64,000 bases of DNA from positions 416,001 through 480,000 of the forward strand of contig CAWDVW010000005.1 of assembly GCA_963805855.1 (NCBI GenBank). Reading direction: 5' to 3'. The notes under the pieces were generated by a model that had not been told where the DNA came from, did no database searches, and saw only the letters and a list, made by a program, of their open reading frames with translations. Position numbers and translations under genes: made by a program. Source of the DNA: Candidatus Dadabacteria bacterium (GTDB lineage Bacteria; Desulfobacterota_D; UBA1144; Nemesobacterales; CSP1-2). Below, piece after piece: positions 36,466-61,499 of this stretch. Every line of letters begins with the position of its first letter. Position 1 is the first letter of the stretch.

Positions 36466-37935
36466 ATGAGTACAACACACGATACCGTAACAGTTAACGA
36501 TATGCATTCAGAAGAGGAAACCTTAAGGGAAAAATTAAACCGGATGCATCTCTTCGCCGAGCTTTCAGCGGAACATATTAACAGCTTGGTCGCTAAATCT
36601 AAAGAGCAACATTTTTCACCAGGGACTGTTGTTTGCCGAGAGGGAGAATACGGCGACACGTTTTTTGCTATTCTTGAGGGTTCCGTAGAGATCACTATCA
36701 AAACCGCTGGGTACGACAGTTTGACTCTCGCCAACCTTGAAGAGGGTGACGTTTTCGGGGAAATGGCTGCATTATCAGGTTATCCAAGGAGTGCCACAGT
36801 TTCTGCCAAGGACGACTTACGCCTGCTAGAGATACCCTCAGAGGTTCTCAAGGAATTAATGAAGATTTCTCCTAAGTTCAGGGAAATAATCGAAGAAAAA
36901 TATACCGCACGAGCGGTTCGTACATATCTGAGAAAGGTACCGCTCTTTGGAAATTTGAGCGACACCATGCTCGAGGAACTGGAAGGTAAGGTCAAATTAA
37001 AATCATTCAATCAGTCGGATGTTATATTCAGGGAAGGCGATCCCGGTGATTCTCTATATATAATACGGAATGGATTCGTCAAGATAACAAAGCAAAGTGG
37101 GGATAAAGACCAGATAATCGCTTATCTTGCGCAGGGAAGCTACTTCGGGGAGATGGCACTTCTTGAAGATGAAAAACGAAGCGCAACGGTATCAGCCTTC
37201 ACAAAGGTTGAGACAATCCAGGTGGTAAAGGACGATTTTAACACACTGCTACTTACAGATCCAAAATTGGCTGAAGAGGTGAACGACATCATTATGGAGC
37301 GAAAGCTCAAGACCCTCGAGGTCCAGAGGGATCCGGCAAAGGCCGAGAGGCTTGAAACGCTGGTGGAGAAGGGAATTATACAGAGTGAGAGTCTTCTAAT
37401 CATTGACTTAGCAACCTGTATTCACTGTAACAATTGTGTTGAGGCCTGTGAGGACCGACATGGATATCCGCGCCTTGACAGGAGGGGAACACGGTTCGCC
37501 GAAATATCTGTTCCCGTTGCGTGTCGTCTTTGCCAAGACCCGGTTTGCCTTATCTGCAATTTCGATGCTATAAAAAGGGCGCCAACAGGCGAGATCTATG
37601 TGATAAATGATAAATGCATAGGGTGTGCGGGATGCGCAATTAGATGCCCATATAATGTTATCCAGATGGTCTCAACCAAGAAAGAGAGTAAATCTGGAGT
37701 GTTTGACATTATTGGAACCTTCTTTGGCAGGGACGAAAGACCGGCTGCGGAAGATGAGGAGGAGCGCAAACCTAAGCCGAAACGTATTGCGATTAAATGT
37801 GACAATTGTATGGGTTATAGCGATACCGCATGCACTAATAACTGCCCAACAAATGCCATTCGGTGGGTGAACCCCCTTGAATACTTTAGAGATCTTGAGG
37901 ATGTATTAACAAAACGGGGCAAATATCAATATTAA
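36466..37935 (+). CDS. Tandem cNMP-binding domains fused to a 4x[4Fe-4S] (DmsB/NrfC-type) ferredoxin
   Basis: Two FGEMA....RSATV cassettes; CIHCNNCVEAC, CRLCQDPVCLIC, CIGCAGCAIRCP, KCDNC....CTNNCP. Confidence 0.88.
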   Translation: MSTTHDTVTVNDMHSEEETLREKLNRMHLFAELSAEHINSLVAKSKEQHFSPGTVVCREGEYGDTFFAILEGSVEITIKTAGYDSLTLANLEEGDVFGEMAALSGYPRSATVSAKDDLRLLEIPSEVLKELMKISPKFREIIEEKYTARAVRTYLRKVPLFGNLSDTMLEELEGKVKLKSFNQSDVIFREGDPGDSLYIIRNGFVKITKQSGDKDQIIAYLAQGSYFGEMALLEDEKRSATVSAFTKVETIQVVKDDFNTLLLTDPKLAEEVNDIIMERKLKTLEVQRDPAKAERLETLVEKGIIQSESLLIIDLATCIHCNNCVEACEDRHGYPRLDRRGTRFAEISVPVACRLCQDPVCLICNFDAIKRAPTGEIYVINDKCIGCAGCAIRCPYNVIQMVSTKKESKSGVFDIIGTFFGRDERPAAEDEEERKPKPKRIAIKCDNCMGYSDTACTNNCPTNAIRWVNPLEYFRDLEDVLTKRGKYQY

Positions 37936-37948
37936 ACATTTCAGGAAC

Positions 37949-38230
37949 TCAACAAAATATGTTCTTTTCTTCCTGATAAGTACGCATAACTTCCCGCAAG
38001 TCCTCGGGATCGAGTTGCTCAGATAGTCGCGTAGAGCCAACCAAGTCACAAAACATTACGGTCACCTGACGCCGTTCGGGTTCACGAGCTAAACGGTCAG
38101 TGACTCTAGTTTCGGAAGACAAGTCCAATGATCGTGGGGCAGTTGTGTCTCCTTTGACCAATCTTGTTCCACACTTCATGCAAAATAATGCTTCCTTAGG
38201 GTTGTCATACTCACAGTTTGGACATGGCAT
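37949..38230 (-). pseudogene. Truncated zinc-ribbon + cyclase N-terminal fragment
   Basis: CPNC..NP..A.FC.KCG, ERRQVTVMFCDLVGST; ends after 93 aa; shares 109 bp with the neighbouring gene. Confidence 0.8.
37971..38079. repeat. 109-bp direct repeat (partner 41322-41430), 2 mismatches
   Basis: Manual alignment, 107/109 identical. Confidence 0.9.
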
Positions 38231-38266
38231 TTTAATTGCCTCTCTGAACTATTGAGATACGAGAAC

Positions 38267-41200
38267 CTATGACAATTCATCAAGAACTAGCTTCGCTTCC
38301 TTTAGATCTCTGGTGTTGAATCCTTCTTCAAACCAACTATAAATATTCAAAAGGATCTTCTTACCTTCTTCTGCTCTATCCGTGTTTTTCAGCCACCGTC
38401 CAAGGCTGGTCGCTGCTCGTAGTTCGAAAGACTTGGCTCCCTGTTCTTTAGCCAAAGTCAGTGATTTGAGCAGACATTCTTCAAAATTTTCGCGATCCTT
38501 TTTGGGAAGACCCTTAATTGAGCCCTTGGCGGTCATCTTAAGTAAGAGTAATTCGCCCTTTAGTCTCAATAGCTCGGGATCATAATTATGTTCGTTTTTT
38601 GATCTGGCGACTTCTAAAAGCTCTTCTACGAGTTTAAGACCCTGTTCAGGCATATTGGCTAAAATGTACAGTTCTGCAAGCATACTCATATAACCGGGGT
38701 CCTTATACCCCAATTTCTCCATCGAATCAGCAATAACAGAAATCCCTGCCCCGATTTCACCATTTTGCCCTAGTATCCAGCCCTTAAAGATTGATGCCCA
38801 TAACACATGAACCGGTAATTTTTTTAAGTTTGCATGTTCTATGATTAGATCAGCCTGCTTTTCAGTTTGTTCAATATCCCCTCTTTGCTTATGAATGAAT
38901 GCCGTAGCCATATGTGCGGTAATCAAACTGAAGTTATGAGATTGTGCCAACTTTATGGCTTCATATCCCGCCTTAATAGCCCTATCGGGATAACCCATTG
39001 TCCAACTGATTAAACACAAAGCCCTGTGGCAACACATGCCCGGGTCGTGCCCTCCATAATTGAAACAATGTGTTTCATGCATCTCCGGACTGTATAGCTT
39101 CCGTCCTTCTTCCAGGTGCTCATATGAGCGTTTATAATCGGGGATCAACATCAATGTGGTCCAAAGGGCATGGTGGGCCTGCAAAAGCAGCTCTTTGTCA
39201 TCTTCTTTCTTGGCGATCCTATAGAGCTTCTCACCGAGCTGAATTTCTACCTCTGTGTCTTGCGAGAAATGATAGCCTAGCCATACACCCCATAAAACGG
39301 GGAAAACGTCGGGTGAATCTCCGATCTGCTCACTTAGTGGCCATGCCCTGTCATAAATCTCCTTAGTTTGTTTAGACCCGTATCCAGTAGTTGCAAAGGA
39401 TGCTATTCCTAGATTCTTTAGTAACTTGAGCTCCCGATCTGAATTTTTTTCAGAAGCTGGCAATGAATCATACCAATCTAGGGCCTTACATAGGAATTCA
39501 TAGGCTTCTTTAAATGCGCCACTTCGAAGGGCTGTCTCACCAGCCAGTTGGAGATAATTAATGGTTTTGATAGCAGCTTCTCTATAGTCCATATTTTCTC
39601 CAGCCGCCAGAGCCCAGTGGTATGCTAAGATTGGGTAATAGGCCATTAAATCATTCTTATATTTTTTCTCATAAGCCATTGCAGCTCTATGATGATATTG
39701 CCTACGCTTGCTCTTAAGCAATGACTCATAAGCCGCGTCACATATTAGGGCATGTTTAAAGATGTATGTTGATTCAGGAGGAATGCCTTGTTGATAAAGT
39801 ATTTCCACATCGACTAACTGAGACAAAGAATCCCTTAACGTGTCATCATCCATGGATGATACTTCAGACAGCATCTCATAAGAAAATTCACGACCAAGCG
39901 TTGACGATAATTGTGCCACTTCCCTCACTGGTGCAAGGCGATCCAGCCTCGCCATTAGAGAGTCTTGTATAGATGAAGGTATTGCCAATGATGGTATTGA
40001 TCCTGTCACCTCATAATTCTCATCATGCTCTTTCAGAAAATCGGATTCCAACACCATCTTTGTCAATTCTTCCACGAAAAGTGGTACACCATCAGTTTTG
40101 GCAACCAACTGCTGAATGACTTCCCGCGGAAGCGACTTTCCCCCTGCTACACTCTTAGCCATAAGCTCAATATCCTTTGCAGATAGTCGAGTTAAATTTA
40201 TCTCTGTGATATTTTCTGAACTGTCCCAAGAATGGGTAAAATCCGGACGGAATGTCAAAAGAGTTAAAATTCGTGACTTAGAAATATCATCAAAGATGAG
40301 ACTCAACAACTCAAGTGTTGAAGGATCCACCCAATGCATGTCCTCCAATATGAATAAAACAGGAGAATTCTCCATCGCATTCCTTAGCCATTTAAGTAAG
40401 GCTTTCTGTGTCTTTTGCTTTTGAATCTGTGGAGATAAGTTAAGAGGCTGAATATCATTGTTAACCGGGATTGTAAGCAAAGAAGCAAAAAGTTGTAACG
40501 ATTCGTTTGTTGAAAAACCCATTTTCGCTTGACCTCTTTTAAGCTTCTCTAATTTTTTCTCAGGGGAATCTGCCTTACTTATCTCCAGAAATCGCTCTAG
40601 ATAATCAATCACAGGATATAGAAAACTATTCTGAAAATACGGTAAGCATCGGGCACTTATTATATGATGTGGCTCGTCAACTAAGCGGCCTTTTAAGACT
40701 TCTACAAGACGTGATTTGCCAATTCCAGCCTCTCCACTCAGGAGAACAAATTGTCCAAGACCTTCTTTAGCCTTCTCCCATGAAGCAAGCATAAGTTCAA
40801 TTTCCTTTTTCCTCCCCACAAGAGAAGTCAATCCTTTGGTGGTAGCTACTTCTAGGTGACTTTTTAAACCACTCTCTCCCACTACCTTATATGCTTCCAT
40901 AGGCTGGGATATGCCTTTTAGAGTGTGCTGACCCGTGGATTCACACTCAAAATAACCCTCGATAAGCCGATAAGTAGCTTTACTAATTACTACCGTGTCA
41001 GTCTCGGCAAGCCCCTGTAGGCGAGCCGCTATATTTGGTGTATCACCCACTATCGCCATCTGCTCACGCACCTCTCCCGCACCCATTTCCCCTGCTATTA
41101 CCAGCCCAGTGTGAATCCCTATTCGCACTTGTAGAGGCTGTTCTAATTGCTTTTTCTGGAGGGGAAGATCCCGCACCGACTGAACAACTTCTAGACCTGC

Positions 41201-41620
41201 ATGAACGGCCCTTCGGGCATCATCCTCATGTGCCTTCGGATATCCAAAGTAAACAAGGATGCCGTCACCTAGATACTTTGCTATATGTCCATCAAATCCT
41301 TTTATTACCTTTGCGCAAACCTCCTGATAAGCACGCATAACTTCCCGCAAGTCCTCGGGATCGAGTTGCTCAGAAAGTCGCGTAGAGCCAACCAAGTCAC
41401 AAAACATTACGGTCACCTGACGCCGTTCGGCATCTTGTTTTCGCTTATATATAGCTTCGTGTACTTCCTCTGAAAGAGTAGTCCCGCACTCTCCGCAGAA
41501 CTTCGATCCCGAGGGATTCTCAAAATTGCAATTAGGGCATAGTCGCCCGAGTGGACTACCACACTCATTACAAAACTTCATTCCATCCGGATTTTTAAAA
41601 CCGCATTTTGAGCAGGCCAT
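38267..41620 (-). CDS. Double zinc ribbon-class III cyclase-STAND ATPase-TPR protein
   Basis: Four CxxC; FCDLVGST, AKYLGDG, GDTPNIAARL; GEAGIGKS; EDMHW; helical C-terminus ending ELRAATSL..GFNT.DL. Confidence 0.9.
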   Translation of the reverse strand: MACSKCGFKNPDGMKFCNECGSPLGRLCPNCNFENPSGSKFCGECGTTLSEEVHEAIYKRKQDAERRQVTVMFCDLVGSTRLSEQLDPEDLREVMRAYQEVCAKVIKGFDGHIAKYLGDGILVYFGYPKAHEDDARRAVHAGLEVVQSVRDLPLQKKQLEQPLQVRIGIHTGLVIAGEMGAGEVREQMAIVGDTPNIAARLQGLAETDTVVISKATYRLIEGYFECESTGQHTLKGISQPMEAYKVVGESGLKSHLEVATTKGLTSLVGRKKEIELMLASWEKAKEGLGQFVLLSGEAGIGKSRLVEVLKGRLVDEPHHIISARCLPYFQNSFLYPVIDYLERFLEISKADSPEKKLEKLKRGQAKMGFSTNESLQLFASLLTIPVNNDIQPLNLSPQIQKQKTQKALLKWLRNAMENSPVLFILEDMHWVDPSTLELLSLIFDDISKSRILTLLTFRPDFTHSWDSSENITEINLTRLSAKDIELMAKSVAGGKSLPREVIQQLVAKTDGVPLFVEELTKMVLESDFLKEHDENYEVTGSIPSLAIPSSIQDSLMARLDRLAPVREVAQLSSTLGREFSYEMLSEVSSMDDDTLRDSLSQLVDVEILYQQGIPPESTYIFKHALICDAAYESLLKSKRRQYHHRAAMAYEKKYKNDLMAYYPILAYHWALAAGENMDYREAAIKTINYLQLAGETALRSGAFKEAYEFLCKALDWYDSLPASEKNSDRELKLLKNLGIASFATTGYGSKQTKEIYDRAWPLSEQIGDSPDVFPVLWGVWLGYHFSQDTEVEIQLGEKLYRIAKKEDDKELLLQAHHALWTTLMLIPDYKRSYEHLEEGRKLYSPEMHETHCFNYGGHDPGMCCHRALCLISWTMGYPDRAIKAGYEAIKLAQSHNFSLITAHMATAFIHKQRGDIEQTEKQADLIIEHANLKKLPVHVLWASIFKGWILGQNGEIGAGISVIADSMEKLGYKDPGYMSMLAELYILANMPEQGLKLVEELLEVARSKNEHNYDPELLRLKGELLLLKMTAKGSIKGLPKKDRENFEECLLKSLTLAKEQGAKSFELRAATSLGRWLKNTDRAEEGKKILLNIYSWFEEGFNTRDLKEAKLVLDELS

Positions 41621-41983
41621 GCCTCAACCCCCGAATTGGTCAAAGACTTTATCAATAAAAATTGAGTGGATTAACTGATTCAACAAACTCGAGCTCACCA
41701 CCGCCAAATCAATCCCATTTCAAATGCTTATTATCTAAAATTTGGTCCAAGAATGCAAGCTAACCAAAAATAACTCCTAGAATCGAAGCTGATTCAATAT
41801 ACCATTTATCCCAATATGTTTAATTTCCTTGGTTTGATGTTTGAGTAGGAAACTTTTATAATTTCGTATCATCTAATTAACAATTTTCTTCCTTTTGGGT
41901 GGATGAGATCGATTTGGCTGAAGTGGAGAGGCCATTTTGACCTGTGATCTTCTCAATAATCTGAGTACACCAGGACTTAATCA

Positions 41984-43075
41984 ATGACACAAAAAGGCTA
42001 TTTAGTAGCTGCTAACATCTCGGGATATGAAGAATTTCTCACGAAGGCTGAGCTTGAGCATGCACAATCGATTGTAAATGATCTAGTAAATACCCTCATA
42101 GATGGTATCAGCCATCCGCTAGTCTTCTCAAAAATAGAAGGAAATTCCATTTTCCTATGCTCACCTGAAGGTAGTTTTGTACAAGGTCAGACCTTGCTGG
42201 AAATAATTGAGAACCTGTATTGTACCTTCGCTAGGACACTAGAAACTATGTCTCGGAACACCGTGTGTCCTTGCCAAGCATGCCAGCTTATGTCTGGTTT
42301 GGATCTCAAATTTATCGTCCACTACGGAACATTTAGCTTGACTAAAATTGATGGTCAGCACGATCTGATGGGTCCGGACGTAATGATTCTGCGTGAATTA
42401 TTTAAAAGCCCTATCTCCGATGCTGCAGGTAATAATGGCTATCTGTTCATCACAAGCGCGTGCACAGATGCCATGGGATTAAGCAGGTTGACTGATCGTA
42501 TGAAGACCTACTCCGCCACGTTTGAAGACCTTGGAGAATTAAAAGGGCTTATCCACGACCTCCACGCCGTTTGGGAACGCGAACGCGAGCAACGTCGCAT
42601 CACGATTAAACCTGAGGACGCCTGGCTTCAGGTTGAGACAGATCTACCCGTTTCCTCGGCTTTAGCCTGGGAATACGTCACAGAACCGAATTTTAGGAAA
42701 CAGTGGCTTTCGGCAAGCAATGTTACGGCCTATACAAACGATAAGGGCCGAATGGGAATCGGTACTACATATATTTGCTCCCATGGGAATTATAAGATAA
42801 ACCAGGTCATAGTCGATTGGCGCCCCTTCGAATATCTGACAGTTGACACTGCGATGCCGATGAAGGGGATGCAGAGAAATACCACGCAGCTCACCCCTCA
42901 TGGAAGCGGAACCCGTGTTTCATGGAGATTTGATGAAATAACGGGGAGAAACCGAATACATACGCTTATGCTGAGGATGCTTTTGAATTCTATGAAGGGT
43001 AAGATAACGAGCCGCTTAAAAGAGGGCGGCAAGAAGGTACTAAAAATGATTGAAGACGATCGAATTGCGGAGTAA
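41984..43075 (+). CDS. DUF2652 (cyclase-like) + SRPBCC protein, degenerate active-site motifs
   Basis: ANISGYE, KIEGNS, CPCQAC, LKFIVHYG, YICSHG; paralog of the next gene. Confidence 0.8.
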   Translation: MTQKGYLVAANISGYEEFLTKAELEHAQSIVNDLVNTLIDGISHPLVFSKIEGNSIFLCSPEGSFVQGQTLLEIIENLYCTFARTLETMSRNTVCPCQACQLMSGLDLKFIVHYGTFSLTKIDGQHDLMGPDVMILRELFKSPISDAAGNNGYLFITSACTDAMGLSRLTDRMKTYSATFEDLGELKGLIHDLHAVWEREREQRRITIKPEDAWLQVETDLPVSSALAWEYVTEPNFRKQWLSASNVTAYTNDKGRMGIGTTYICSHGNYKINQVIVDWRPFEYLTVDTAMPMKGMQRNTTQLTPHGSGTRVSWRFDEITGRNRIHTLMLRMLLNSMKGKITSRLKEGGKKVLKMIEDDRIAE

Positions 43076-43173: not shown

Positions 43174-44286
43174 ATGGCTCAAGAAAAGGGTTACCTTGTT
43201 ATCGCCGATATAAGTGGTTACACAGCCTTTTTGACCCAGGCAGAGCTAGAACACGCCGAAGGGATCATGAAAAGCCTGTTCGACACGCTTGAAAAAAGCA
43301 TGCAATCACCGCTTGTTATATCCAAATTGGAAGGGGATGCAATCTTCGCTTATGCACCGGACGGAAGTTTCATTAAGGGTCAGACGCTGCTTGAGGCTAT
43401 TGAGAATATATACTGTGCCTTTGCAATGTCTTTAGAGAGCATGCGTCGTAGCACAACGTGTACCTGCAAGGCATGCGAACTCATTCCCACCCTGGATCTA
43501 AAGTTTGTATCGCACTATGGCACATATATTCTGAGTGATATAGGCGGACGACAGGAACTTAGCGGACCTGACGTAATACTAACACATAGGCTTCTCAAGA
43601 ATAAAATAGATGAAACAAATGGAAAGATAGCCTATGCCTTTCTATCTGAATCCTGTGCGGATGCTATGGGTTTGGGCGAATTGAAAGAGGTAATGAAGCC
43701 GCACTCCGAGACGTACGAGCACCTCGGAGAGATTCGCGGCTATGTTCATGACCTGCATAAAGTTTGGGAGAGAGAACGCGAAGCGAGGCGTGTTTATGTT
43801 GATCCTGACGAATCCTGGTTCAAAGTCGAGGTTGATATACCGGCGAAACCTGCGCTTGTATGGGATTATTTGGCCGACCCGCAACTGAGGCGTCATTGGC
43901 TTCAAGCAGACGGCATGACTGCGAAGGGTGCTGAAAAGGGAAGATTGGGAGTCGGATCAGAATATCACTGTGCCCATGGAGACCTGACCGTCGTCCAGAC
44001 TGTTGTGGACTGGAAGCCATTCGACTATATGACCCTTGATGTCGCTTTCGCAAAGGATCAACGTTTTCGGCTCACCACCAAACTTACTCCAACAGATGGC
44101 GTTACACGTGTGTCATGGTACTTTTTCAAGCTAGGCAGCAGCAATTTCATCAACTCATTCGTAACCAAATGGAAGACGTCCAAGATGCAGGGTATGCTCG
44201 CTGACTTTTTCGGTAAGGGTAGCACGCTGCTCCGCGAGATGATAGAAAAGGACATCACAGAGGGTAAGGTAGCAACCAAAAATTAG
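43174..44286 (+). CDS. DUF2652 (cyclase-like) + SRPBCC protein
   Basis: IADISGYT, KLEGDA, CTCKAC, LKFVSHYG, GPDVILTHRLLKN, YHCAHG. Confidence 0.85.
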   Translation: MAQEKGYLVIADISGYTAFLTQAELEHAEGIMKSLFDTLEKSMQSPLVISKLEGDAIFAYAPDGSFIKGQTLLEAIENIYCAFAMSLESMRRSTTCTCKACELIPTLDLKFVSHYGTYILSDIGGRQELSGPDVILTHRLLKNKIDETNGKIAYAFLSESCADAMGLGELKEVMKPHSETYEHLGEIRGYVHDLHKVWEREREARRVYVDPDESWFKVEVDIPAKPALVWDYLADPQLRRHWLQADGMTAKGAEKGRLGVGSEYHCAHGDLTVVQTVVDWKPFDYMTLDVAFAKDQRFRLTTKLTPTDGVTRVSWYFFKLGSSNFINSFVTKWKTSKMQGMLADFFGKGSTLLREMIEKDITEGKVATKN

Positions 44287-44301: not shown

Positions 44302-45297
44302 CTATGGCGAGAGGTTATTGATCGTCTCCCTCGCCAAATCTCTCGAGGCTTTGGGAGGCAAAATAATGATAGGAATGTCCGCGCCCGCTTTCCTGAATTC
44401 CTCGATTTTGCTTCTGCCGGCATTCGCCGAACCTGTAACCGCGACTGAATTCAGCAAGGTATCGCTGACACCTTCGATTGCTTCTGTTTTGCTTCCCTTT
44501 TTCCAAGCCTCAACAATCGAATTGGCTTCATGTTGGAATCCGTACCTGCTGATCAATCCAGAATAAAAAGTCCCCATCGCACCAATGTAATAGGCGATGT
44601 ATTCCTTGATTAATCTTCGTGTGCCATCCTCGTCATCAGAAACTAGCGCTGGGATGTAGGGACAAATTTTGATCTTATCAAACGCCTTTCCTCCCTTTTC
44701 AGCTCCAGCGCGTAGGTAATCTTCGGTTTGTTTGTAATGTTGAGTTGGAACCAGAAACGGAATCCAACCATCGGCAATTTCACCTGTAAGGGTTATATTC
44801 TTAGGTCCAATAGATGCAATATAAATCGGTATTACCTCTCTGAATGGCTTAAATTGGAGACTAAAGTTTTTTAGTTTAAAAATCTCGCCCTGATAATTTA
44901 CTCTTTGTCCACTAATTATCATCCTTATTATTTCGACGTATTCTCGAGTCCTTCGTAGTGGTTTCTCAAACTTAACACCATGCCAGTTTTCAATCACTAC
45001 GGGTCCGCTTGTACCCAGGCCGAGTATCACTCTTCCCTCTGAGATCTCATCTAATGTCGCAATAGTTTGTGCAATAATCGCCGGGGTTCTGCTGTAGACC
45101 GAAACGATTCCCGTTCCGAGCTTAATCCTTTTTGTATGTAGCGCGATCACCGAGAGAATAGAGAATGCGTCCCTACCCCACATCTCGGGAACCCAGATAG
45201 AATCATATCCAAGTCCTTCTGCAAGTTGGGCAAAATCAATGATCTCGTCTTTTGTGATATCATTCCAGTAAGGAATTACAAGACCTATTGCGGACAA
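44302..45297 (-). CDS. LLM-class oxidoreductase, probably F420-dependent
   Basis: GGAGG RBS before TTG at 45297; WVPEMWGRDA, RTPA..AQT.ATLD.IS.GR.ILGLGTSGP.VIE.WHG, GEIADGW. Confidence 0.85.
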   Translation of the reverse strand: MSAIGLVIPYWNDITKDEIIDFAQLAEGLGYDSIWVPEMWGRDAFSILSVIALHTKRIKLGTGIVSVYSRTPAIIAQTIATLDEISEGRVILGLGTSGPVVIENWHGVKFEKPLRRTREYVEIIRMIISGQRVNYQGEIFKLKNFSLQFKPFREVIPIYIASIGPKNITLTGEIADGWIPFLVPTQHYKQTEDYLRAGAEKGGKAFDKIKICPYIPALVSDDEDGTRRLIKEYIAYYIGAMGTFYSGLISRYGFQHEANSIVEAWKKGSKTEAIEGVSDTLLNSVAVTGSANAGRSKIEEFRKAGADIPIIILPPKASRDLARETINNLSP

Positions 45298-45337
45298 TTT
45301 GTCACCTCCTTCAAATTCAGCATCTATATCATAATTT

Positions 45338-45600
45338 TGCCAATCCCGCAACGAGTGAGTGGGAATCCGTCTGGCCATTGTCCCGACTTCCTTTATTGGA
45401 AATCGATATAAATTATCTTTTGGATCACCGATTACGCTTTTCCCGCATGAACTAAGCGGGGATTACTCGGTGATGACAAATGAGATATCGCCATCAGCGG
45501 TAGTCATTGAAAACCATCCTCTTGTGTCATTCCCGCGGATTGTTAGCGGGAATCCATATTTTTCTTTCTGGATCCCCGACAACTGTCCTCGGGGATGACA
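45338..45600. repeat. Cluster of TGTCATTCCCGC..GCGGGAATCCA-type palindromic repeats in inverted pairs
   Basis: Units at 45338-45368, 45421-45478 (inverted), 45525-45557, 45569-45600 (inverted). Confidence 0.75.
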
Positions 45601-45664
45601 AATTACTCGTCATTTCAATTAGAGCATTATACTTACAGTGTCGGTATTAAAATACAGCTAGACT

Positions 45665-45955
45665 ATGAACGCGTACTTTGTTTATATAATGGCGAGTAAA
45701 AGAAACGGTACCTTGTACGTTGGTGTAACCTACAATCTAATGAAAAGAGTTTACGAACACAGAACTGATATAATCCAGGGATTTACGAAGAAATATTCGA
45801 TACATAAATTAGTTTATTACGAACAGACAAATGACATTTACAACGCAATCGAAAGAGAAAAACGTCTAAAAAAATGGCACCGAAAGTGGAAAATAAAGCT
45901 GATTGAGAAGTTTAATCCGAATTGGGATGATTTGTATGACGAGGTAACAGGCTAA
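45665..45955 (+). CDS. Small GIY-YIG nuclease
   Basis: YFVYIMASKRNGTLYVGVT..L..RVYEH, GFT.KY...KLVYYE, AI.REK.LKKW.R.WK..LIE..NP.W.DL. Confidence 0.92.
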   Translation: MNAYFVYIMASKRNGTLYVGVTYNLMKRVYEHRTDIIQGFTKKYSIHKLVYYEQTNDIYNAIEREKRLKKWHRKWKIKLIEKFNPNWDDLYDEVTG

Positions 45956-45974
45956 TTGTAAAACCAACCTAAGC

Positions 45975-46007
45975 TGTCATTCCCGCGGATTGTTAGCGGG
46001 AATCCAT
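45975..46007 (+). repeat. Exact 33-bp copy of the 45525-45557 repeat
   Basis: TGTCATTCCCGCGGATTGTTAGCGGGAATCCAT. Confidence 0.85.
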
Positions 46008-46161
46008 GCTCCTGGTTTTGGATCGCCAATCCAAATTGTGCCAGTTAGGCTTTCGAAGTACTGAAATCCCATTTAATGATGTTAAGATATTTTATAAATA
46101 ATGTCCAAAATTCCAAAAGACTTATTAAGCGAAGTAAACAAATGGAGAAATTTAGCAGAGA

Positions 46162-51870: not shown

Positions 51871-51887
51871 TTGGCATGAAACTTGCT
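51871..51887 (+). promoter_or_regulatory. Sigma54 (-24/-12) promoter
   Basis: TTGGCATGAAACTTGCT matches TGGCAY-N5-TTGCW; GG and GC 12 bp apart; about 50 bp before the ATG. Confidence 0.75.
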
Positions 51888-53654: not shown

Positions 53655-55845
53655 ATGGCTCGAACCATATCTGCACGATTAGCAGAGCGGGCACAAACCT
53701 AGCTTCGTTGGGCGAAAAGAAGAACTTTCATTACTAAGAAGTGCAATATCATCAGATGAGCTTCCATTCGTTGTAGTTTACACTCACGGAGTTGGGGGCA
53801 TTGGAAAATCCAGGCTGCTCCAAGCCATATTTCAAAATCTACATCCAGACATTACGGCGATCAGATTGGACTGTCGAGAAATTGAACCAACCGAGCAGGG
53901 CTTTCTAAATGCACTTAGAAATGCTGTTTGTCCAGAAGAGTTGGAGTTAGAGAAAACTAAGATCATCTCAAAGTTGGCCCAACCAGGCAGACGCACGGTA
54001 CTCGCTCTTGACACTTATGAGACCTTTGGCTTAATGGACACGTGGTTGCGTCAAGAGTTTATTCCTGATCTCCCGGATACGGTTCTCGTCCTCATCAACA
54101 GCCGTGAAAGACCAAATTCAGCCTGGCTAACCACTCCAGGTTGGGAATCTCTATTTCATGAAATTCATCTTGAAGAACTTCCAGAAAGGGACGCTCATGA
54201 AATGTTGAGGCTTCGTGGACTCAATAAATCGCAGATAAAAAAGGTAAACCGTTTCGCGCGCGGTTATCCGCTGGCATTAGAGCTAGCTTGTGCCGCGATC
54301 AAGAACAATCCTGATCTCGAGATGATAGAAGGGCCGCCTCCCAAGGTTTTAAAACATCTAACGGATCGGTTTCTCAGTGGTCTCCCGTTAGAAATAAAAG
54401 AGGCCATAGAAGCTTCGTCAACCGTCTGTCGGTTCACCGAGCCTGTTTTAAGGTCTTTGCTAAATAAGACCAATGTCAAAGAGGTATTCAATAAATTGCA
54501 AGAACTTCCCTTTGTAAATGCTACGGATGAAGGATTATTTCTACATGATCTGGTTCGGGAGACTATTTCCAACAGCTTATCGAGCAGAGATCCGGAAAGT
54601 TACCGCGGGTATCGCAGGAGGGCATGGCGGTATTTTAATACAGAATCGTATCGAGCCCAGGCAATTAATCTCTGGCAATACACCGCGGACTTACTCTATC
54701 TGATACAGAACCCCAATATCAGAGAGGCTTTCTTTCCGCGAGGAGCCAGCGATTACACAGTAGAGCGGGCCACCACGGGTGACACCGAGGAGATTTGTAA
54801 TATTTGCTCAACTACAGAGCCCAAAGAGGCAACTCGGCTCATCCAGCGTTGGTGGGACCGGCATCCTGAGACCTTTAGCGTCGCAAGGACGCGGGATGTC
54901 AGGGTCGCAGCGTTTTACATCCTATTCGAACCCAATGACGTTGACCCTGACTTACTGGCAGATGATCCCCTGACTGCCGCGTGGTTGGAGCACCTACAGA
55001 TAAATCCCCTTGCTCCCGGGGAGCGTGTGCTCTTCCTCCGGAGGTGGCTTACCCGATTAATCGGCGAGGCTCACTCACCAGCTCTGGCTGCGTCTTGGCT
55101 CGACGTCAAGCGCACCTACATGGAGCTCCGACCTGGTTTGCGGCGGCTCTACGGAACAGTAATTGATCCTCTGCCTTTTCTTCCCATGCTAGGTCCCCTT
55201 GGCTTCGTTCCGCTCGAGGAAGCAAATATAATGCTCGGTGGGGTCACGTATCACACAGCCCTCCTCGACTTTGGCCCCTCCAGTGTTGATGGCTGGCTCA
55301 GTAGACTGATTGGTGCGGAACTGGGTGTGGATAAAGAAGAAATTGAAGAAATTCCAGAAGGCACTGTAACTATTTTGTTCGCCGACATTGCAGACTCAAC
55401 AAAGCTCACTGAAAAACTCAGCGATTCGGCCTTTAGAGATGAATCCCGGAAACTGGAGGAGGCGCTAAAGAAAGCAATTACTGCGTGCGACGGAAAGATG
55501 ATCGAAGGGAAACTACTTGGTGACGGTGTCTTGGCTGTGTTCAAATCGGCGAATAAGGCAATTGATTGTGCGTTCAGCTTTAATAATGCAGCTAATTCGA
55601 CCATCCTTAGACTTCACATCGGATTGCATGCCGGCGACGTTATTCGGGAGGGCAAGAATATATATGGAGGCGCAGTAAATATAGCTGCGCGTATTTCTGA
55701 TAAATCTGCTCCTGGGGAAATTGTTGTGTCTGAAACTGTGAGGAGTATTGCCAGAACGTCAATCAGAGTTAAATTTGAGGACAGGGGATTACACAGCTTA
55801 AAAGGCATTTCAGATCCGCATCGCCTCTTCTCAGTCCGTTTATAA
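53655..55845 (+). CDS. STAND ATPase with C-terminal class III cyclase; apparent +1 frameshift at ~53700
   Basis: ATG at 53655, then FVGR.EE, GVGGIGKS, LALDTYE, GYPLAL; C-terminal FADIADST, KLLGDG, GGAVNIAAR. Confidence 0.85.
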
Positions 55846-56013: not shown

Positions 56014-56403
56014 ATGAAAGACTTTTCAGGGACCTTTATATTGCTTCTTATAACAATCTTGATGACCCTGTTTATGATTGATAGGGCTATGGCTCAAGAT
56101 GCGTTGGAAGTAGCGCCAGAGCACTACACCGTGCTGCTGGAAAATGACAAGGTAAGGGTGCTTGAAGTTAAAATCAAACCGGGCGAGAAGGAAGCGATGC
56201 ATACCCATCCGGCTACTGTGCACATAGAATTGGTTCCTACCAAGGTCAAAATCGGCTATCCCGATGGAAAAAGTGTAACGCTAGAAGGAAAGAAAGGGGA
56301 AGCAATATGGGTTGGTCCCGTGAAGCATACCGTGGAGAACATAGGCGACACGGAGATTCACGCCTATATAATTGAGCTAAAAGACATACCGTATAAAGAC
56401 TGA
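56014..56403 (+). CDS. Exported cupin-domain protein
   Basis: GAGGAG RBS; signal peptide; LLENDKVRVLE, HTHP, HTVENIG. Confidence 0.82.
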   Translation: MKDFSGTFILLLITILMTLFMIDRAMAQDALEVAPEHYTVLLENDKVRVLEVKIKPGEKEAMHTHPATVHIELVPTKVKIGYPDGKSVTLEGKKGEAIWVGPVKHTVENIGDTEIHAYIIELKDIPYKD

Positions 56404-56410
56404 GGTCCAA

Positions 56411-57884
56411 TTGAACCGCAGGGATTTTCTAAGGTCTATCCTAGGATCATCTGGTCTAATTCCAACATTATCGTGGAAGTCCGCCACTTCAGAGACGAAA
56501 GGTAAGGGAGTATTGGTAAATGATGCGCATACACAACTTAATCCGACCTATGTGGATCAGATCGTTTACCCGCAGTCTATCGACACAGTTCAAAGTATAA
56601 TCCAAAACGCCTCCCGTAACGGAAGCAAGATTTGTATAGCTGGTGCACGCCATGCCATGGGAGCGCAACAGTTCGCAACCGATGGAATTCTTATAGACAC
56701 GACGACACTTAGCAAGGTGTTGAAATTCAACCCGGAGAAGGCGACTATCGAGGTGGAAGCTGGAGTGAGGTGGCCCCAACTGATTGGCTACTACATCGAA
56801 GCACAGAAAGGAAAGAAGGCTCAATGGGGAATTGCCCAAAAACAGACTGCTGACTGGCTATCAATTGGCGGTAGCCTCGGATCCAATATCCATGGCCGTG
56901 GACTCACAGATGAAACCCTTTGTTCAGGATATTGAATCGTTTCAATTAATCGATTCAAATGGAGAGCCTACACAAATGCAGTCGTAAAGAGAATCCGGAG
57001 CTCTTCGGTCTCGCCATCGGCGGATACGGATTGCTTGGAATCGTTTATTCCGTCGAACTGCGTCTTGTGCCCAGGCAAAAGGTAGAGCGTGTGAGCAAGA
57101 TTCTAAGTGTAGATGACTTAATGCCAGCTTATGAAAAGCGCATTGCAGACGGTTTCCTGTATGGAGAATTTCTTTACAACTCTGACGCAAAATCAAAAGA
57201 CTTTCTCAGAAAGGGAATATTTGTCTGCTACCGGCCTGTAGAAACGAAGAAAACCAGTACCGGACTACCCGGAGCAACCTTCAGCCGAAAAGTGGATGAA
57301 TCTACGGTATCTGGCTCATGCAAAGAAAGAGGAGTTTTTCCGCAAAGTTTCTGATCACTATCTGTCGACCTCTGGTAATGTATATTGGTCAGACACACAC
57401 CAGATGGGGTTATACATTTATGACTATCACAAGCAACTTGATAGAATGCTCGGTTCTCCAGAGGCAACCGATATCCCGGCGGAGGTCTATGTACCGAGAG
57501 ACAGGCTAACCGATCTCATAAACGAGATGCGAGAAGATTTCTTAAAAAACAATGTGGATTTAATATTTGGAAATATAGGTGTGATAGAAGAGGATAATGA
57601 GAGCTTTTTGGCTTACGCAAAAGAGCCTTATGCGACAATCAGCTTTCATATACACACAGTCCATACACCTGACGGTCTAAAGCGCTCTGCCGAGGCGCAT
57701 CGCAGAGTCATTGATATGGCAATAGAGCGCGGAGGAAGTTACTACCTCACCAACCACAGGTTTGCAACGCCAAAGCAATTAAATGCCTGTTATCCGCAAT
57801 TCCCTGAATTTCTTCAGTTAAAAAAAAAATATGATAAAGAAGATATTCCAGAGCGATTGGTACAGCTACTATAAGAACATGTAA
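56411..57884 (+). pseudogene. Tat-exported FAD-binding oxidoreductase (lactone oxidase/DprE1-like) with four apparent +1 frameshifts
   Basis: NRRDFL Tat motif; GARHAMG.QQF, SIGGSLGSNIHGRG, ENPELF.LAIGGYGL.G, GGSYYL, FQSDWY across successive frames. Confidence 0.8.
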
Positions 57885-58147
57885 GGAGAACTATAATTGC
57901 GAGTCGCAAAGAGACGAATCCACCATCATTCTGGTTGAGCACTTATTCTGCTTAGCTTTCGAAATTTCAATTTGCCAGTCGCAGACCGTCGTAATTTTTC
58001 AAAGTTAATCCTTTCACTTTTTTTGGACTTGGGAAAAGCGTGCGCGTAAAAAATAAGTGTCAGTTTCCCCTCAGATGTTTTATGTAGTATCTTTTATAAT
58101 TAAGAAATATTTGAAGAGCAAAAAATAGCGAGGGTAGAGGTAAGCGG

Positions 58148-61100
58148 ATGATATGTCCTTCCTGTAACTTTCAAAATCGAGAAAAGCTAAAGTATCTGTA
58201 AAGAATGTGGAGCAAAATTAGAATTCGTCTGTCCCCAGTGTAACAATAAAGTTGAACTAAATGCCAAATTTTGTGATGAGTGCGGTCATAATTTTAAACG
58301 AGCTAAGAGAGACCAGAAATCTCCCCAAATTGAGTTAGGCAAACCCCATAGCTATATCCCTCAAAATCTCGCTGATAAAATTCGGGCCTCAAGAAGTGGT
58401 ATAGAAGGAGAAAGGAAGCTTGTTACCGTTCTGTTTGCCGATGTAAAGGGCTCAACGGCAATCGGTGAAAATCTCGACCCTGAGGAACTTCACTCAATAA
58501 TAGAAAAATCATATGAAATCTCGTTGAAAGAAATTCATCGATTTGAAGGAACTGTAAATCAGTTTCTCGGTGACGGATTCATGGCCCTTTTTGGTGCACC
58601 AATAGCACACGAAGACCATGCCATACGAGCAATCCACTCTGCCCTTGCTATACAAAACGCTATGACTTTTTATACCGATGAGTTAAAGAAAGACCGGGAT
58701 ATAGAATTTAAGATGAGACTTGGAATAAACACCGGAACTGTAGTAGTTGGAAATATAGGAGACGACCTCAAGATGGACTACACCGCATTGGGCGACACAG
58801 TAAACCTAGCATCTAGAATGGAACAGATTGCTCAGCCTGGAAGCATTACCATTGCTGAAGACAGCTATAAGCTCGTAAAAGATCACTTCAGTTTTAGGTC
58901 ATTAGGTCCACTAGAGATAAAAGGAAAGAAGAAACCAGTATCCGTTTATGAGGTTATAGAGCCCAGAGGAAGGGAGAAAACGAGAATTGAGATTTCAGAG
59001 GAGCGGGGATTTACAAGATTTATAGGCAGAGAGAGAGAAATAGAGGTACTAAGAGACTCTCTTGCAAGATCGAGAGATGGCCACGGACAGGCCGTAACCA
59101 TAGTTGGCGATGCAGGGATAGGTAAATCTCGACTTCTTTATGAATTTAGAAAACTCCTGGAAGACGAGAATATACTTTATTTAGAGGGTAGATGCATTTA
59201 TTATGGTAAATCAATGTCTTATTTGCCAGTTATAGACATTATAAAAAAGAGGTTTCGAGTAGATAAATTAGACACTGAAAAAACGATCAGAAAAAAGATA
59301 GAAAAGGGGATAAGAGATATAGACCCAAGCTTAAAAGAGGGTGTTCCTTTCCTCTATGACATACTTTCGATTGATTCGGATGACCCTACACTTAAGAGCC
59401 TGGACGTAAGAGACAAGAGGAGGAGAACGATTGACACCATCAAAAATATAATCTTAGCGGATAGTACACCTAGACCTCTTGTGGTAGTTGTTGAGAATCT
59501 TCACTGGATAGACGGTGCCTCTGAGGAATTTATTAGCTTTCTTATCGATAACTTGCCAGGTAATCGGATAATGCTGATTCTAACTAGTCGTCCCGGATAC
59601 AGGCCCAAATGGAGTGAGAAATCCTATCACAATCAAATCGCTCCAAGCCGTTTGTCAAATTCCGAAGTGGGGGAGATGATTGGGTCAATCTTAGATGCCA
59701 AAAATGTAGCTGGAGCGCTAACCAAATTGGTTACTCAAAAAGCCGATGGAATACCTTTTTATGTCGAGGAAATCATTAAATCCTTCACTGAATCTGGAAT
59801 TATAGTGGAAAGCAAAGATGGCTATGATGTCAGCAAAGGAATAGCTGAGATGAACGTGCCTGACACAATTCAGGACATTATCATGGCCCGGATTGATAGG
59901 TTAGAGGAGAGTCACAAAAGTACACTTCAATTTGCCTCTGTAATCGGTAGGGATTTTAACTACAAGCTACTGAAAGAGCTAATGGAAGTAGGAGAAGAGC
60001 TTCAAGACTATCTTACCAAGCTAAAAAGCTTAGAGCTGGTTTATGAAAGGAGTCTCTTTCCAGATCCAGAATATCGATTCAAACATACTCTAACACAGGA
60101 AGTAGCTTACAACAGCGTCCTAATTAGGAGAAGAAAAGAACTACATGGGAAGATAGGTGAGATCATGGAGGATCTATATGGGGATAAGCTGGAAGAAAAT
60201 TATGAGCTATTGGCGTATCACTATGGAAGAAGCCCCAGAGACGAGAAAGCAGTTGATTATTTGGTCCTGGCAGGGGATAAGTCTGCAAAGATATATTCTC
60301 CCGAGGATGCTATAGCCTATTATGAAGAAGCCCTTAAGAAACTGGATAATTTGCCGGATACCAGATCCAATAAGGAAAAGAGGGTAGATATTTTCATAAA
60401 GCAGGCGAGAGTTATGCGTCTTATGGGTCGCTTTAAAGAGTACATAAAAACACTGGAAAAGCACTTACCAATAGTAGAAGAGCTCGGAGACAAAAATAGG
60501 CTAGCGGAATACTACTTTAAAATGGGATTCTATTACTCAGTTATGGGAGAACTTTCAGATTCAATCAAGTACCTGGCTAACTCTATCAAACTCGCTCAGG
60601 TAACAAAAAATGAAAGGATCATTGGATTGGCATCAGCTAGGCAAGGGTATAACTACTGGTACAAGGGCGAATTCAAGAAGGGGATTCCCATCATTAAAAA
60701 AGGTATAAAAATTCTAGAAAAGCTAGGTGATGATTATTGGCTTGCTAGGTCGTTCCAACCGTTAGGAGCATGCTATTGGCAACTTGGTGACTGGGATAAC
60801 AGCATCAACTGCATGCAAAAGCTTCTGAAAAAAAGCGAAGAATTATCAGACAACAACCTAATGGTTTTAGCAAACTGGTCTGCTGCTCTTCCCCATTTAG
60901 AAAAAGGAGAATGGGACATAGCGATTAAGTACTGTGAAAAAAGCCTTGAAATGTCTCCTCCACCCGTGTTCGCTGCGTTTGCAACAGGATTTCTCGGCAC
61001 TGCATATTACAGGAGTGGTCAATTAAAGAAAGGAATAGATTGTATGGAGAAAGCCATCCAACAGAGCAAATCGTTTGGACTGAAGCAACAAGAAGCTATA

Positions 61101-61499
61101 TGCACCGTTTCTTTAGCAGAGGCTTATTTATCCATAGGTGAAAGGGAACGAGCCCAAGAGACAATCAAAAGTGCTTTGGATATTAGTACAAAAGCCGGCT
61201 TTAAGCACATCGAGGCCATGGCTTTAAGGGTCTCGGGTGAAATATATGGTTCATCAAATTTTCATAAGGCTAAAAAGCATATCGAAGATAGCATTACGAT
61301 CTTTAGGAAAATAGGAGCGAAAAACGAGCTTGCTAAGAGCTATTTTAGTTTGGGGAGGCTATACAAGGAAAAAGGTGAAAAAACTAAGGCAAAGAAATAC
61401 GTCACTCAGGCTCTCACCATCTTCGAAAAGCTGGGCACACTCCACGAACCCGAGAAGGCAAGGGAAATACTCAGGGATGTAAAGGGGTCGCCGTCCTAA
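58148..61499 (+). CDS. Double zinc ribbon-class III cyclase-STAND ATPase-TPR protein; apparent +1 frameshift near 58190
   Basis: MICPSC then, in the open frame from 58197, CKECG..CPQC..FCDECG, GERKLVTVLFADVKGST, NQFLGDG, YTALGDTVNLASR; GDAGIGKS; ENLHW; TPRs. Confidence 0.88.

Follow-up and report, generated by a model that had tools for sequence, protein, structure and literature searches.

A stretch of 64,000 nucleotides from a Candidatus Dadabacteria genome (C5:416001-480000; the whole stretch is called the window below) carries a dense group of genes in which class III cyclase domains are fused to STAND NTPases. Most of a hot spot of ~40 kb that holds all of the cyclase-STAND genes of the genome lies within the window. 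The explanation that we favor, with a probability of roughly 0.55, is that the hot spot is a mosaic of small modules that are inherited separately and not a single fixed multi-gene system, that it grew through tandem duplication and insertion, and that it contains a cyclase switch gated by TPR repeats, with small DUF4242 proteins (Pfam family PF14026) on the input side and redox proteins that bind cyclic nucleotide monophosphates (cNMP) as local readers. The original prediction for this DNA, which described 25 kb of it as one cyclic-nucleotide signaling system, is supported in part by these results.

The genome is 3.11 Mb in nine contigs and is 93.8% complete. Genes in the window were called from a listing of open reading frames (ORFs) and from Pfam scans, and the phylum was sampled in a collection by 120 species genomes. 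Ten matches to PF00211 (class III cyclase) were found in the genome and six of these lie within C5:456883-490466 (33.6 kb), two of them past the end of the window. In 200,000 uniform random placements of ten points, a span of 33.6 kb never took in six of them, which puts the co-occurrence in this genome beyond chance. The five best AAA_16 (STAND) matches, which are all of the strong ones in the genome, are the five cyclase-linked genes of the cluster, and the window also holds both matches to PF10851 (DUF2652) and three of the five to PF14026. Just past the window end are a FIST/NosP-like gene with a 275-aa cyclase, and a fifth cyclase-STAND gene (1083 aa), a paralogue of the 1117-aa gene of the window. 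The genes named in the original prediction are all present in their places, but the cluster is larger than the 25 kb given there and runs on past the window end. The three zinc ribbon-cyclase-STAND-TPR genes that it described (named here by length as the 1117-aa gene, the 1252-aa gene and the 991-type gene) are likewise all there; the third is frameshifted, and Pfam finds no TPR in the 1117-aa protein, whose C-terminal half aligns only to the NCBIfam model TIGR03903.

The blocks of the window were separated by comparison with the loci of relatives (blastp and blastn). G006, a genome of the same genus, is collinear with the window from an aldo/keto reductase through a sigma-54 activator to a polyferredoxin with two cNMP-binding domains (the ferredoxin below), and it is without window blocks 37976-44257 (a 93-aa remnant, the 1117-aa gene and the DUF2652 pair; 6.3 kb), 45352-45952 and 53351-57114. 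Its DUF2652 pair is on another contig, beside an AcrB gene and with no cyclase there. G010, from another genus, joins 1117-type genes, the DUF2652 pair, two 991-type genes and a short-chain dehydrogenase/reductase directly, with no 1252/DUF4242/BBE block between them, and two tandem 1117-type copies stand at the position that matches the 93-aa remnant. Further block orders, each different, were seen in G002, G007 and G014, and clusters of three to four cyclase genes per contig are also present in G002, G005, G006, G007 and G010. Because the clusters recur in relatives in differing combinations, the clustering is a family trait but the content of the blocks is fluid. Tandem duplication is the obvious cause of the clustering of cyclase genes, given the two tandem copies in G010 and the agreement between the 93-aa remnant and the start of the 1117-aa gene; judged by its alignment, the remnant is what is left of another copy of that gene, once in tandem with it.

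These comparisons bear on the proposal that the whole 25 kb is one integrated system, in which TPR-gated cyclases feed the cNMP-binding ferredoxin and the DUF4242 and DUF2652 proteins act as modulators. The extreme clustering and the intact cNMP-binding domains of the ferredoxin are in line with such a system, as are the distances of 2.4 kb between the ferredoxin and a 1256-aa cyclase-STAND in G006 and of 6.7 kb between the ferredoxin and a DUF4242-cyclase fusion in G007. The separate inheritance of blocks in G006 and G010 contradicts co-inheritance as a unit, however, and DUF4242 accompanies non-cyclase STANDs in other phyla; the ferredoxin, moreover, has orthologues on contigs free of cyclases in four of eight other genomes (G002, G004, G010 and G080). 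We regard a single integrated system as improbable.

The input side of the mosaic is best seen in the DUF4242 genes. The array in the window starts 48 nt past the end of the 1252-aa switch gene, and its three genes score 70.7, 61.1 and 74.5 bits against PF14026 (cut-off 28.5). Orthologues of the 1252-aa gene in G006, G002, G007 and G014 have one to three DUF4242 genes directly downstream. Three of the five PF14026 matches of the genome are beside cyclase-STAND genes and the other two are fused to a cyclase. These 279-aa fusions (L002 2591-3430 in G000:C6 and L003 2987-3826 in G000:C5) are one residue apart; the DUF4242 part is N-terminal and belongs to a distinct DUF4242 subfamily. Both lie beside transposase or integrase fragments, and their cyclase part has a Gln where an Asn is usual. 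Elsewhere in the phylum there are 18 PF14026 loci, of which four are cyclase fusions, five follow a large cyclase ORF and one is beside a 750-aa STAND-cyclase; in these ten a cyclase domain is either part of the same protein or at most ~4.5 kb away, and two of the 18 are cut by contig ends.

Outside the phylum the same arrangement was found with other output domains. A scan of public genomes with a DUF4242 alignment gave 25 loci, 17 of which are near full-length matches. A same-strand NTPase/TPR ORF ends just upstream in 16 of these 17 loci and in none of the seven weakest matches. The upstream proteins of Rubrobacterales have the Pfam architecture Trans_reg_C+BTAD+AAA_16+TPR (AfsR-like Streptomyces antibiotic regulatory protein, SARP) in all four that were scanned, and in one Gemmatimonadaceae locus the upstream protein is Pkinase+AAA_16+TPR, with a weak cyclase-like stretch seen by phmmer only; in loci of the Dadabacteria type the output is a cyclase. 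One genome from each group, G121 (Rubrobacteraceae, 4.7 Mb) and G122 (Gemmatimonadaceae), has a single PF14026 match, and in both it is beside the STAND gene. A metagenome scan was evaluated for the best 80 of 172 DUF4242 relatives, where 58 loci with more than 600 nt upstream could be assessed; an NTPase/TPR ORF ends at most 450 nt upstream of DUF4242 in 52 of them. The complete upstream ORFs among these best 80 number 27 and comprise 12 of cyclase type, eight of SARP type, two of kinase(+cyclase-like) type, which were mapped by phmmer only, and five others; three of the five were scanned and all three are BTAD+AAA_16+TPR. The stop codon of the STAND gene abuts the DUF4242 ATG in many SARP-type loci. 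Between phyla the DUF4242 proteins are 41-52% identical, compared with 24-26% for their partner proteins. Longer or fused forms of the STAND-type DUF4242 were found in none of 62 candidates at E <= 1e-5, which is weak evidence, and a complex prediction for the TPR part (residues 690-1252) with DUF4242 scored 0.00 with no controls and counts neither way.

Our conclusion is that the NTPase-TPR chassis, and not the cyclase as such, is what this DUF4242 subfamily belongs with. DUF4242 follows the chassis with each kind of output domain and is therefore not, as had been proposed, a modulator specific to cyclases; the part of the proposal that stands is its tie to the switches, and the neighborhood enrichment is borne out in at least three phyla, where DUF4242 directly follows AAA_16-TPR genes. 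The STAND switch with DUF4242, often with a BBE-type FAD-linked oxidase, is the conserved core of the region and a new form of the known STAND signaling in which the output domain is exchangeable. The part of the literature on DUF4242 and SCO4226 that was available to us contained no paper dealing with STAND proteins, and likewise the part available on adenylyl cyclase, STAND, TPR and NB-ARC contained none on a cyclase-STAND-DUF4242 module. A wider reading, which is put forward tentatively as something less than an even chance, is that the DUF4242 subfamily is the dedicated small partner of one AAA_16-TPR STAND clade and gates the switch by binding or converting a small molecule, often with the BBE oxidase; the outputs (cyclase, SARP, Ser/Thr kinase) would be swapped, and in the Dadabacteria-type lineage the nucleotide would gate electron transfer via cNMP ferredoxins and NDH-2 fusions.

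The BBE oxidase is single-copy in the window genome. A homologue is beside the DUF4242 module in four public-genome loci (L018, L022, L023, L035) and in seven of the 36 metagenome loci with enough downstream sequence, directly after DUF4242 in L107, L122, L143 and L145. Its position varies: it is after the DUF4242 array here and in G006, after the cyclase-STAND in L035, and divergent from the SARP-STAND in two Rubrobacteraceae loci. The oxidase of the window is 65-69% identical to the Rubrobacteraceae copies (G121:C5:419872-421251 and G121:C5:114857-116248), and since this is far above the 24-26% of the STAND proteins, lateral transfer of the oxidase is suggested. The sigma-54 element listed in the table is ~54 nt upstream of the oxidase ATG and is found in the same place in G006; among the motif matches in the window it is the only one with a suggestive position. 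The genome has 11 strong Sigma54_activat genes, and one of them, the GAF/sigma-54 activator, has orthologues (64-93% identity) next to or near cyclase-STAND/DUF4242 genes in G002, G005, G006, G007 and G014, and near the core in the metagenome loci L085, L088 and L092. A stop-free frame of 1568-1569 aa in L014 2471-7177 (G014 type) and L092 2218-6921 contains a sigma-54 activator and HTH_8 together with cyclase-AAA_16-TPR, and is either a true fusion or two genes without a stop between them.

The main rival to an input role is that DUF4242 and the BBE oxidase are regulated or co-expressed cargo of the STAND regulator, in the way that afsS is switched on by AfsR. The STAND is a transcription activator in SARP-type modules, with the DUF4242 and BBE genes either immediately downstream of it or upstream in divergent orientation, and the oxidase of the window, like that of G006, has a candidate sigma-54 promoter in front of it, all of which would be expected of cargo. 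Cyclase-type and kinase-type STANDs cannot directly activate a neighboring promoter, yet they keep the same downstream gene. The frequent stop/start abutment fits co-translation in one operon with the regulator, in the 279-aa fusions a distinct DUF4242 subfamily stands on the N-terminal side of a cyclase, the usual place of a regulatory domain, and the BBE oxidase is present in only about a fifth of the assessable loci. The cargo explanation is judged unlikely, and we prefer the reading in which DUF4242 deals with the small-molecule cue that the TPR part senses.

A member of the DUF4242 family has been characterized. SCO4226 from Streptomyces coelicolor (PDB 4OI3 and 4OI6) is a ferredoxin-like dimer with weak nickel binding, in which the Ni-1 ligands are Asp43, Ser46 and His76 (PMC4186839). 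The window proteins are in the same Pfam family, their profile matches 4oi3_A at E 2e-12 and the Cys is invariant. They differ from SCO4226 in that Asp43 is replaced by Ser and Ser46 by Asp in the STAND-linked subfamily, with His76 outside the alignment, and in that the window DUF4242 reaches 24.3 bits against the SCO4226 equivalog model NF033706, for which the cut-off is 125. Nickel was considered as the DUF4242 signal and rejected: the Ni-1 ligands given for SCO4226 are not conserved, and because Asp43 and Ser46 are replaced nickel is unsupported as a signal.

The cyclase domains of the four large window genes score 95.6, 99.7, 82.3 and 40.8 bits against PF00211 (cut-off 21.9). Class III cyclases have two metal-binding Asp residues and a pair of residues that contact the substrate, canonically Lys...Asp for ATP and Glu...Cys/Ser for GTP. 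Both metal Asp residues are kept in all nine full-length domains that were aligned, and the 93-aa remnant has the first only. The substrate pairs of the STAND-linked domains are Lys...Thr (1252-aa), Gln...Thr (991-type), Lys...Ala (1117-aa and 1083-aa) and Lys...Asn (STAND-cyclase), and among the aligned domains the canonical Lys...Asp is found only in the 275-aa cyclase, the DUF4242 fusion and C5:719073. The non-canonical pairs are kept in orthologues and are therefore not a sign of decay. With both metal ligands retained, the cyclase-STAND genes look catalytically competent, in agreement with the original prediction, and by default expectation cAMP is the likely product. The AAA_16 domains score 73.0, 93.2 and 94.1 bits, and the STAND-cyclase, when read as a 720-aa open frame, passes the cut-off at 38.6 bits. 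The TPR_12 match of the 1252-aa protein reaches 245.7 bits and that of the 991-aa protein 116.1 bits.

These proteins resemble several known systems in part. The model TIGR03903, 'TOMM system kinase/cyclase fusion protein', aligns after its kinase part to the 1117-aa protein (597.4 bits, model positions 280-1264 of 1267) and to the 1252-aa protein (361.1 bits, model positions 283-929); both fall short of the 705.75-bit cut-off, and neither has a kinase domain. A link to ribosomally synthesized and post-translationally modified peptides (RiPPs) of the TOMM type was considered and rejected, as there is no kinase domain and no TOMM or RiPP gene among the scanned proteins. Mycobacteria have cyclase-ATPase(-TPR)-helix-turn-helix (HTH) proteins (Rv0386, Rv1358 and Rv2488c), and Rv0386 has a Gln at the substrate Lys position, as do the 991-type genes. 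To our knowledge no DUF4242 partner, cNMP-binding redox neighbor or sigma-54 activator has been described for these mycobacterial proteins. They share with the window proteins a cyclase N-terminal to a STAND-type NTPase with helical repeats and non-canonical substrate residues, but the mycobacterial proteins have a LuxR HTH, which is absent here, and the window proteins have an N-terminal double zinc ribbon. A survey of actinobacterial cyclases is available (PMC2447327).

STAND switches such as MalT undergo ligand-induced, nucleotide-dependent oligomerization, class III cyclases are active as dimers, and the activity of MalT is set by small partner proteins. The chassis of MalT and AfsR is the same as that of the window proteins, with an NTPase of the AAA_16 type, an arm and a sensor that resembles TPR repeats, and it is activated through inducer-dependent multimerization (for MalT, PMC4381067); AfsR-like SARP-AAA_16-TPR proteins have the same DUF4242 downstream gene in Rubrobacterales. 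They differ in that the output here is a cyclase and not a DNA-binding domain, and in that the PF14026 partner is unrelated to MalK, MalY, Aes and AfsS.

Five modules may be distinguished in the hot spot. The first would consist of a zinc-ribbon/class III cyclase/AAA_16/TPR switch that is probably co-transcribed with one to three DUF4242 genes and is often followed by the BBE-type FAD oxidase. The second appears to be another type of cyclase-STAND, divergent from a tandem pair of DUF2652-SRPBCC genes, one catalytic-looking and one without the metal ligands. The third and fourth would be the GAF/sigma-54 activator with the double cNMP-binding polyferredoxin, and the STAND-cyclase, whose domain order is reversed; the fifth would be the FIST/NosP-like sensor with the canonical adenylate cyclase. 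We propose that a signal at the TPR arm causes the NTPase to oligomerize, as established STAND and class III cyclase biology would lead one to expect, and that the oligomer brings the N-terminal cyclase domains into active dimers, so that a cyclic nucleotide, probably cAMP, would be made. Gene context suggests that DUF4242 acts on the input side with the NTPase-TPR chassis, where it would bind or process a small-molecule cue, and that the BBE oxidase is a frequent third member of this input module. The nucleotide would then be read by nearby cNMP-binding redox proteins, which are the polyferredoxin here and NDH-2/cNMP fusions in relatives, and through such a local read-out a chemical cue would be coupled to electron transfer. 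As a second reader, the GAF/sigma-54 activator may drive the oxidase gene; a path from cAMP through the GAF domain to sigma-54 is speculation.

The case for local readers comes from the ferredoxin and from a second redox protein. An intact phosphate-binding cassette has the motif Gly-Glu ... Arg-Ser/Thr-Ala, and both cassettes of the ferredoxin read FGEMA(A/L)L...RSATVSA and align to cGMP-dependent kinases. The ferredoxin scores 155.2 bits against PF00027 over two stretches, and its closest solved relatives are domains of cGMP- and cAMP-dependent protein kinases (PKG/PKA), with E down to 1e-32. It is one of six cNMP_binding proteins in the genome. Orthologues (61-93% identity) were found in eight other genomes, in three of which they are within ~7 kb of a PF00211 domain, and one of the eight is 2.4 kb from a DUF2652 gene. 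An NDH-2/cNMP-binding fusion is directly after DUF4242 in G007, L085 and L090, and none of the SARP-type loci examined has a cNMP-binding protein. The recurrence of two unrelated cNMP-binding redox proteins by cyclase-type modules is the best support for a local read-out and is suggestive. The part of the original prediction in which the ferredoxin reads the nucleotide locally is upheld to this extent, by intact PKA/PKG-like domains and recurring cNMP-binding redox neighbors. Four other genomes have more distant ferredoxin homologues or an orthologue in frames of ~800-844 aa, and this length suggests that another domain is fused to it.

A number of findings weigh against the explanation that we favor. 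For the readers, one of six cNMP-binding proteins near one of ten cyclases is non-significant in a single genome, half of the eight ferredoxin orthologues, as noted above, are without a cyclase on the contig, and a multiheme cytochrome (~690-820 aa), not a cyclase, comes after the ferredoxin in three of the five loci examined. Because of this cytochrome partner the ferredoxin is assigned to an electron-transfer unit. For the input side, gene order is the only basis of the link between DUF4242 and STAND proteins; six of the 18 phylum loci have no cyclase on the contig, six of the 58 metagenome loci have no upstream STAND (one of these has a STAND gene downstream), the 12 cyclase-type metagenome loci include five near-identical ones (L079-L083) and related genomes are non-independent, and the 991-type cyclase-STANDs carry TPR_12 yet have no adjoining DUF4242. 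The non-canonical substrate pairs leave the product of the STAND-linked cyclases unassigned, and in the assembly the reading frame is broken in two cyclase-STAND genes and one oxidase. The GG of the sigma-54 element is lost in L035, and sigma-54 motifs are not enriched in the window (38 matches with at most two mismatches, compared with 39.9 expected).

The loci that contain the ferredoxin with a cytochrome c gene are L013 4552-6954, L012 8720-11179 and L011 5525-7600.

An anti-phage system of the Pycsar or Avs kind, in which the STAND senses phage proteins and an alarm nucleotide activates a killing effector, was weighed with PADLOC. TPR-bearing STAND ATPases act in phage defense, and the Pycsar systems likewise combine class III-type cyclase domains with a nearby cNMP-binding protein. 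The PycC models match the cyclases in their cyclase domains only (E down to 1e-24), and the PycTIR models match ferredoxin residues 17-149, the cNMP-binding part, at model positions 10-137 of 288. All of the PADLOC matches fall on generic domains (cyclase, TPR or cNMP-binding). No TIR, PycTM or Avs match was obtained in the region, and DUF2652 and DUF4242 match nothing. In contrast to Pycsar there is no membrane or TIR effector here, the cyclases are fused to STANDs, and the genes are chromosomal, syntenic and accompanied by redox genes; oxidoreductases and the sigma-54 activator are neighbors of a core that is syntenic across genera of one family, and elsewhere the same chassis is fused to SARP DNA-binding domains. 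A role in phage defense is extremely improbable, and the absence of a defense effector agrees with the preference for metabolic sensing expressed in the original prediction.

The DUF2652 proteins of the second module score 77.4 bits (DUF2652a) and 95.1 bits (DUF2652b) against PF10851. DUF2652b keeps Asp...Asp and the Arg of the HRLLKN motif, and DUF2652a has Asn...Asn and a shifted Arg; the DUF2652a orthologues in G010 and G006 have Asn/Glu or Asn/Asn and again the shifted Arg. A study by Ramakrishnan et al. (2016) tied DUF2652 computationally to class III cyclases, with conserved Asp...Asp and Lys...Glu residues and one polyketide-cyclase fusion (PMC4886424). DUF2652b has these residues, and so do all 35 Chloroflexota members that could be aligned. 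A profile-profile alignment of DUF2652 with the cyclase domain ran over the full length (155 columns) and placed the motifs in register, with only 14.7% probability, and the fold relationship is taken from what was available of that study. The part of the study available to us describes neither a tandem pair, of which one member here is without both Asp residues and has a shifted Arg, nor cNMP-binding neighbors. By analogy with heterodimeric cyclases, the pair suggests a catalytic subunit (DUF2652b) and a pseudo-enzyme partner (DUF2652a).

PF10851 was present in 26 of 301 sampled Chloroflexota genomes, and domains were mapped locally over 8 kb on each side of 34 DUF2652 loci. A class III cyclase is present in eight of these loci (directly adjacent in four), a cyclase-STAND in one and a cNMP-binding protein in five (directly adjacent in four). 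The tie of DUF2652 to cyclase-STANDs is loose because it was seen in one of the 34 loci, and the cNMP-binding neighbors fit a cyclase function. The proposed role of DUF2652 as a modulator of the cyclase-STANDs is thus not borne out, and the pair lies apart from them in G006. DUF2652-SRPBCC genes are directly beside cNMP-binding genes in L056, L058, L064 and L068, and in two of these neighbors, which are ~1,000 aa long, the binding domain is C-terminal.

Several genes of the window are broken. The ATG and first zinc ribbon of the 991-type gene (58149 onward) are in another frame, which fits one extra base near 58192. The ATG of the STAND-cyclase at 53656 is out of frame owing to a frameshift near 53690-53705, and its Walker A is upstream of the TTG start at 53866. 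Orthologues of the STAND-cyclase are intact in G002 (738 aa) and G010 (750 aa), as are those of the 991-type gene in G006 and G010, where the Gln...Thr pair is retained. Contigs from four public metagenome runs were aligned to 53500-58400. In all contigs that cover 58182-58194 (from three runs) the sequence is one base shorter, net, than in the window; this would put the 991-type gene back in frame, and because of it the break at 58192 may be private to the assembly. Contigs of related strains have indels at 56905-56966 and 57254, inside the broken FAD oxidase, and coverage near 53690 is thin in the public runs. The gene breaks may be private to the strain, or assembly errors. The runs, which are salt-marsh metagenomes from four studies, contain contig pieces of up to 404 nt at 53500-58400 that are identical to the window, and pieces that are 90-99% alike, so that related strains are co-resident in these metagenomes; one of the four may be the source of the window DNA.

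It could be argued from the truncated copy, the two frameshifted cyclase-STANDs, the broken oxidase, the GIY-YIG insertion and the IS110 fragment that the region is a decaying expansion of paralogues whose small neighbor genes are functionally unconnected to the cyclases, and block content does vary among genomes of one genus. DUF4242 adjacency is kept across three or more phyla and several effector types, however, the degenerate DUF2652a is still intact at 73-88% identity in three genomes, and the break at 58192 may be confined to this assembly. Decay of this kind is highly improbable.

The explanation of the hot spot as a mosaic of modules around a gated cyclase switch matters for several reasons. 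Cyclase-STAND-TPR proteins are common in bacteria, yet we know of no account of the signal that switches them; DUF4242, which is short and soluble, stays with the sensor chassis across phyla and outputs and is therefore the best available handle on that signal. A DUF4242 partner would also bear on the AfsR-like SARP regulators of secondary metabolism. The cNMP ferredoxin and the NDH-2 fusions beside cyclase versions of the module suggest that electron-transfer proteins may be regulated directly by cyclic nucleotides, and direct gating of electron transfer, if true, would be a rarely considered second-messenger control of respiration. The catalytic/degenerate DUF2652 pair and the cNMP-binding neighbors in Chloroflexota would be context evidence for cyclic-nucleotide synthesis by DUF2652.

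Table 1. Genes and other features of the hot spot within the window (window coordinates).
Feature	Position	Strand	Basis and remarks
GAF + sigma-54 activator + HTH_8, 516 aa	34737..36287	+	Pfam; outside the coordinates of the original prediction, conserved cluster neighbor
Two cNMP_binding domains + 4Fe-4S dicluster polyferredoxin, 489 aa	36466..37935	+	Pfam
93-aa remnant: zinc ribbon + first ~35 cyclase-domain positions	37949..38230	-	Pfam, alignment
DZR + Guanylate_cyc + AAA_16 + unassigned helical C-terminal domain, 1117 aa	38267..41620	-	Pfam
DUF2652a + Polyketide_cyc2 (SRPBCC), degenerate paralogue	41984..43075	+	Pfam, alignments
DUF2652b + Polyketide_cyc2 (SRPBCC), canonical paralogue	43174..44286	+	Pfam, alignments
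Luciferase-like, F420-class oxidoreductase (monooxygenase)	44302..45378	-	Pfam; TIGR04024 306.6 bits, cut-off 345.4
GIY-YIG gene (45665-45955, 96 aa) within 68-nt hairpin-bearing direct repeats	45510..46027	+	Pfam, repeats
Double zinc ribbon (DZR) + Guanylate_cyc + AAA_16 + TPR_12 array, 1252 aa	46902..50660	+	Pfam
Three tandem PF14026 (DUF4242)/SCO4226-like genes, 87, 87 and 88 aa	50709-50972, 51012-51275, 51426-51692	+	Pfam, alignments
Candidate sigma-54 -24/-12 element, one mismatch to consensus	51872..51886	+	Motif scan
BBE-type FAD-linked oxidase (FAD_binding_4 + BBE), 472 aa	51940..53358	+	Pfam
STAND NTPase + C-terminal class III cyclase; 659-aa ORF from 53866	53656..55845	+	Sequence, Pfam
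Small cupin-like protein, N-terminal hydrophobic leader	56014..56403	+	Weak Cupin_2 match, E 0.007
FAD_binding_4 oxidase, RRDFL twin-arginine-type leader, three frames	56411..57874	+	ORFs, Pfam
Zinc ribbon + Guanylate_cyc + AAA_16 + TPR_12; 991-aa ORF 58524-61499	58149..61499	+	Pfam, sequence
FIST/NosP-like sensor gene, start only in window	63462..64000	+	Profile matches

Some minor features of the region were also noted. An Rfam scan of the window gave no family above the gathering score, and thus no riboswitch. The segment 45352-45952 with the GIY-YIG gene, which is missing from the G006 alignment, is an insertion relative to that genome; the two 68-nt repeat copies around it are 81% alike with a GC-rich hairpin, and the whole looks like a small mobile cassette. 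The FIST protein resembles the nitric-oxide sensor NosP at 98 bits, far below the cut-off of 450. The 275-aa cyclase past the window end has a coiled-coil and the canonical Lys...Asp pair and scores 226 bits against PF00211, and the two genes (window 63462 to L001 3550) form a sensor-cyclase pair of their own where the cluster ends. Two of the cluster's cyclase genes are separated by an IS110 transposase fragment, a LysR regulator and a KatG catalase-peroxidase (L001 4035-7848). The part of the window at 26000-32000 has a G+C content of 0.52, compared with 0.41-0.46 around it, contains a bicupin, a second luciferase-like oxidoreductase and a methyltransferase, and may be foreign DNA.

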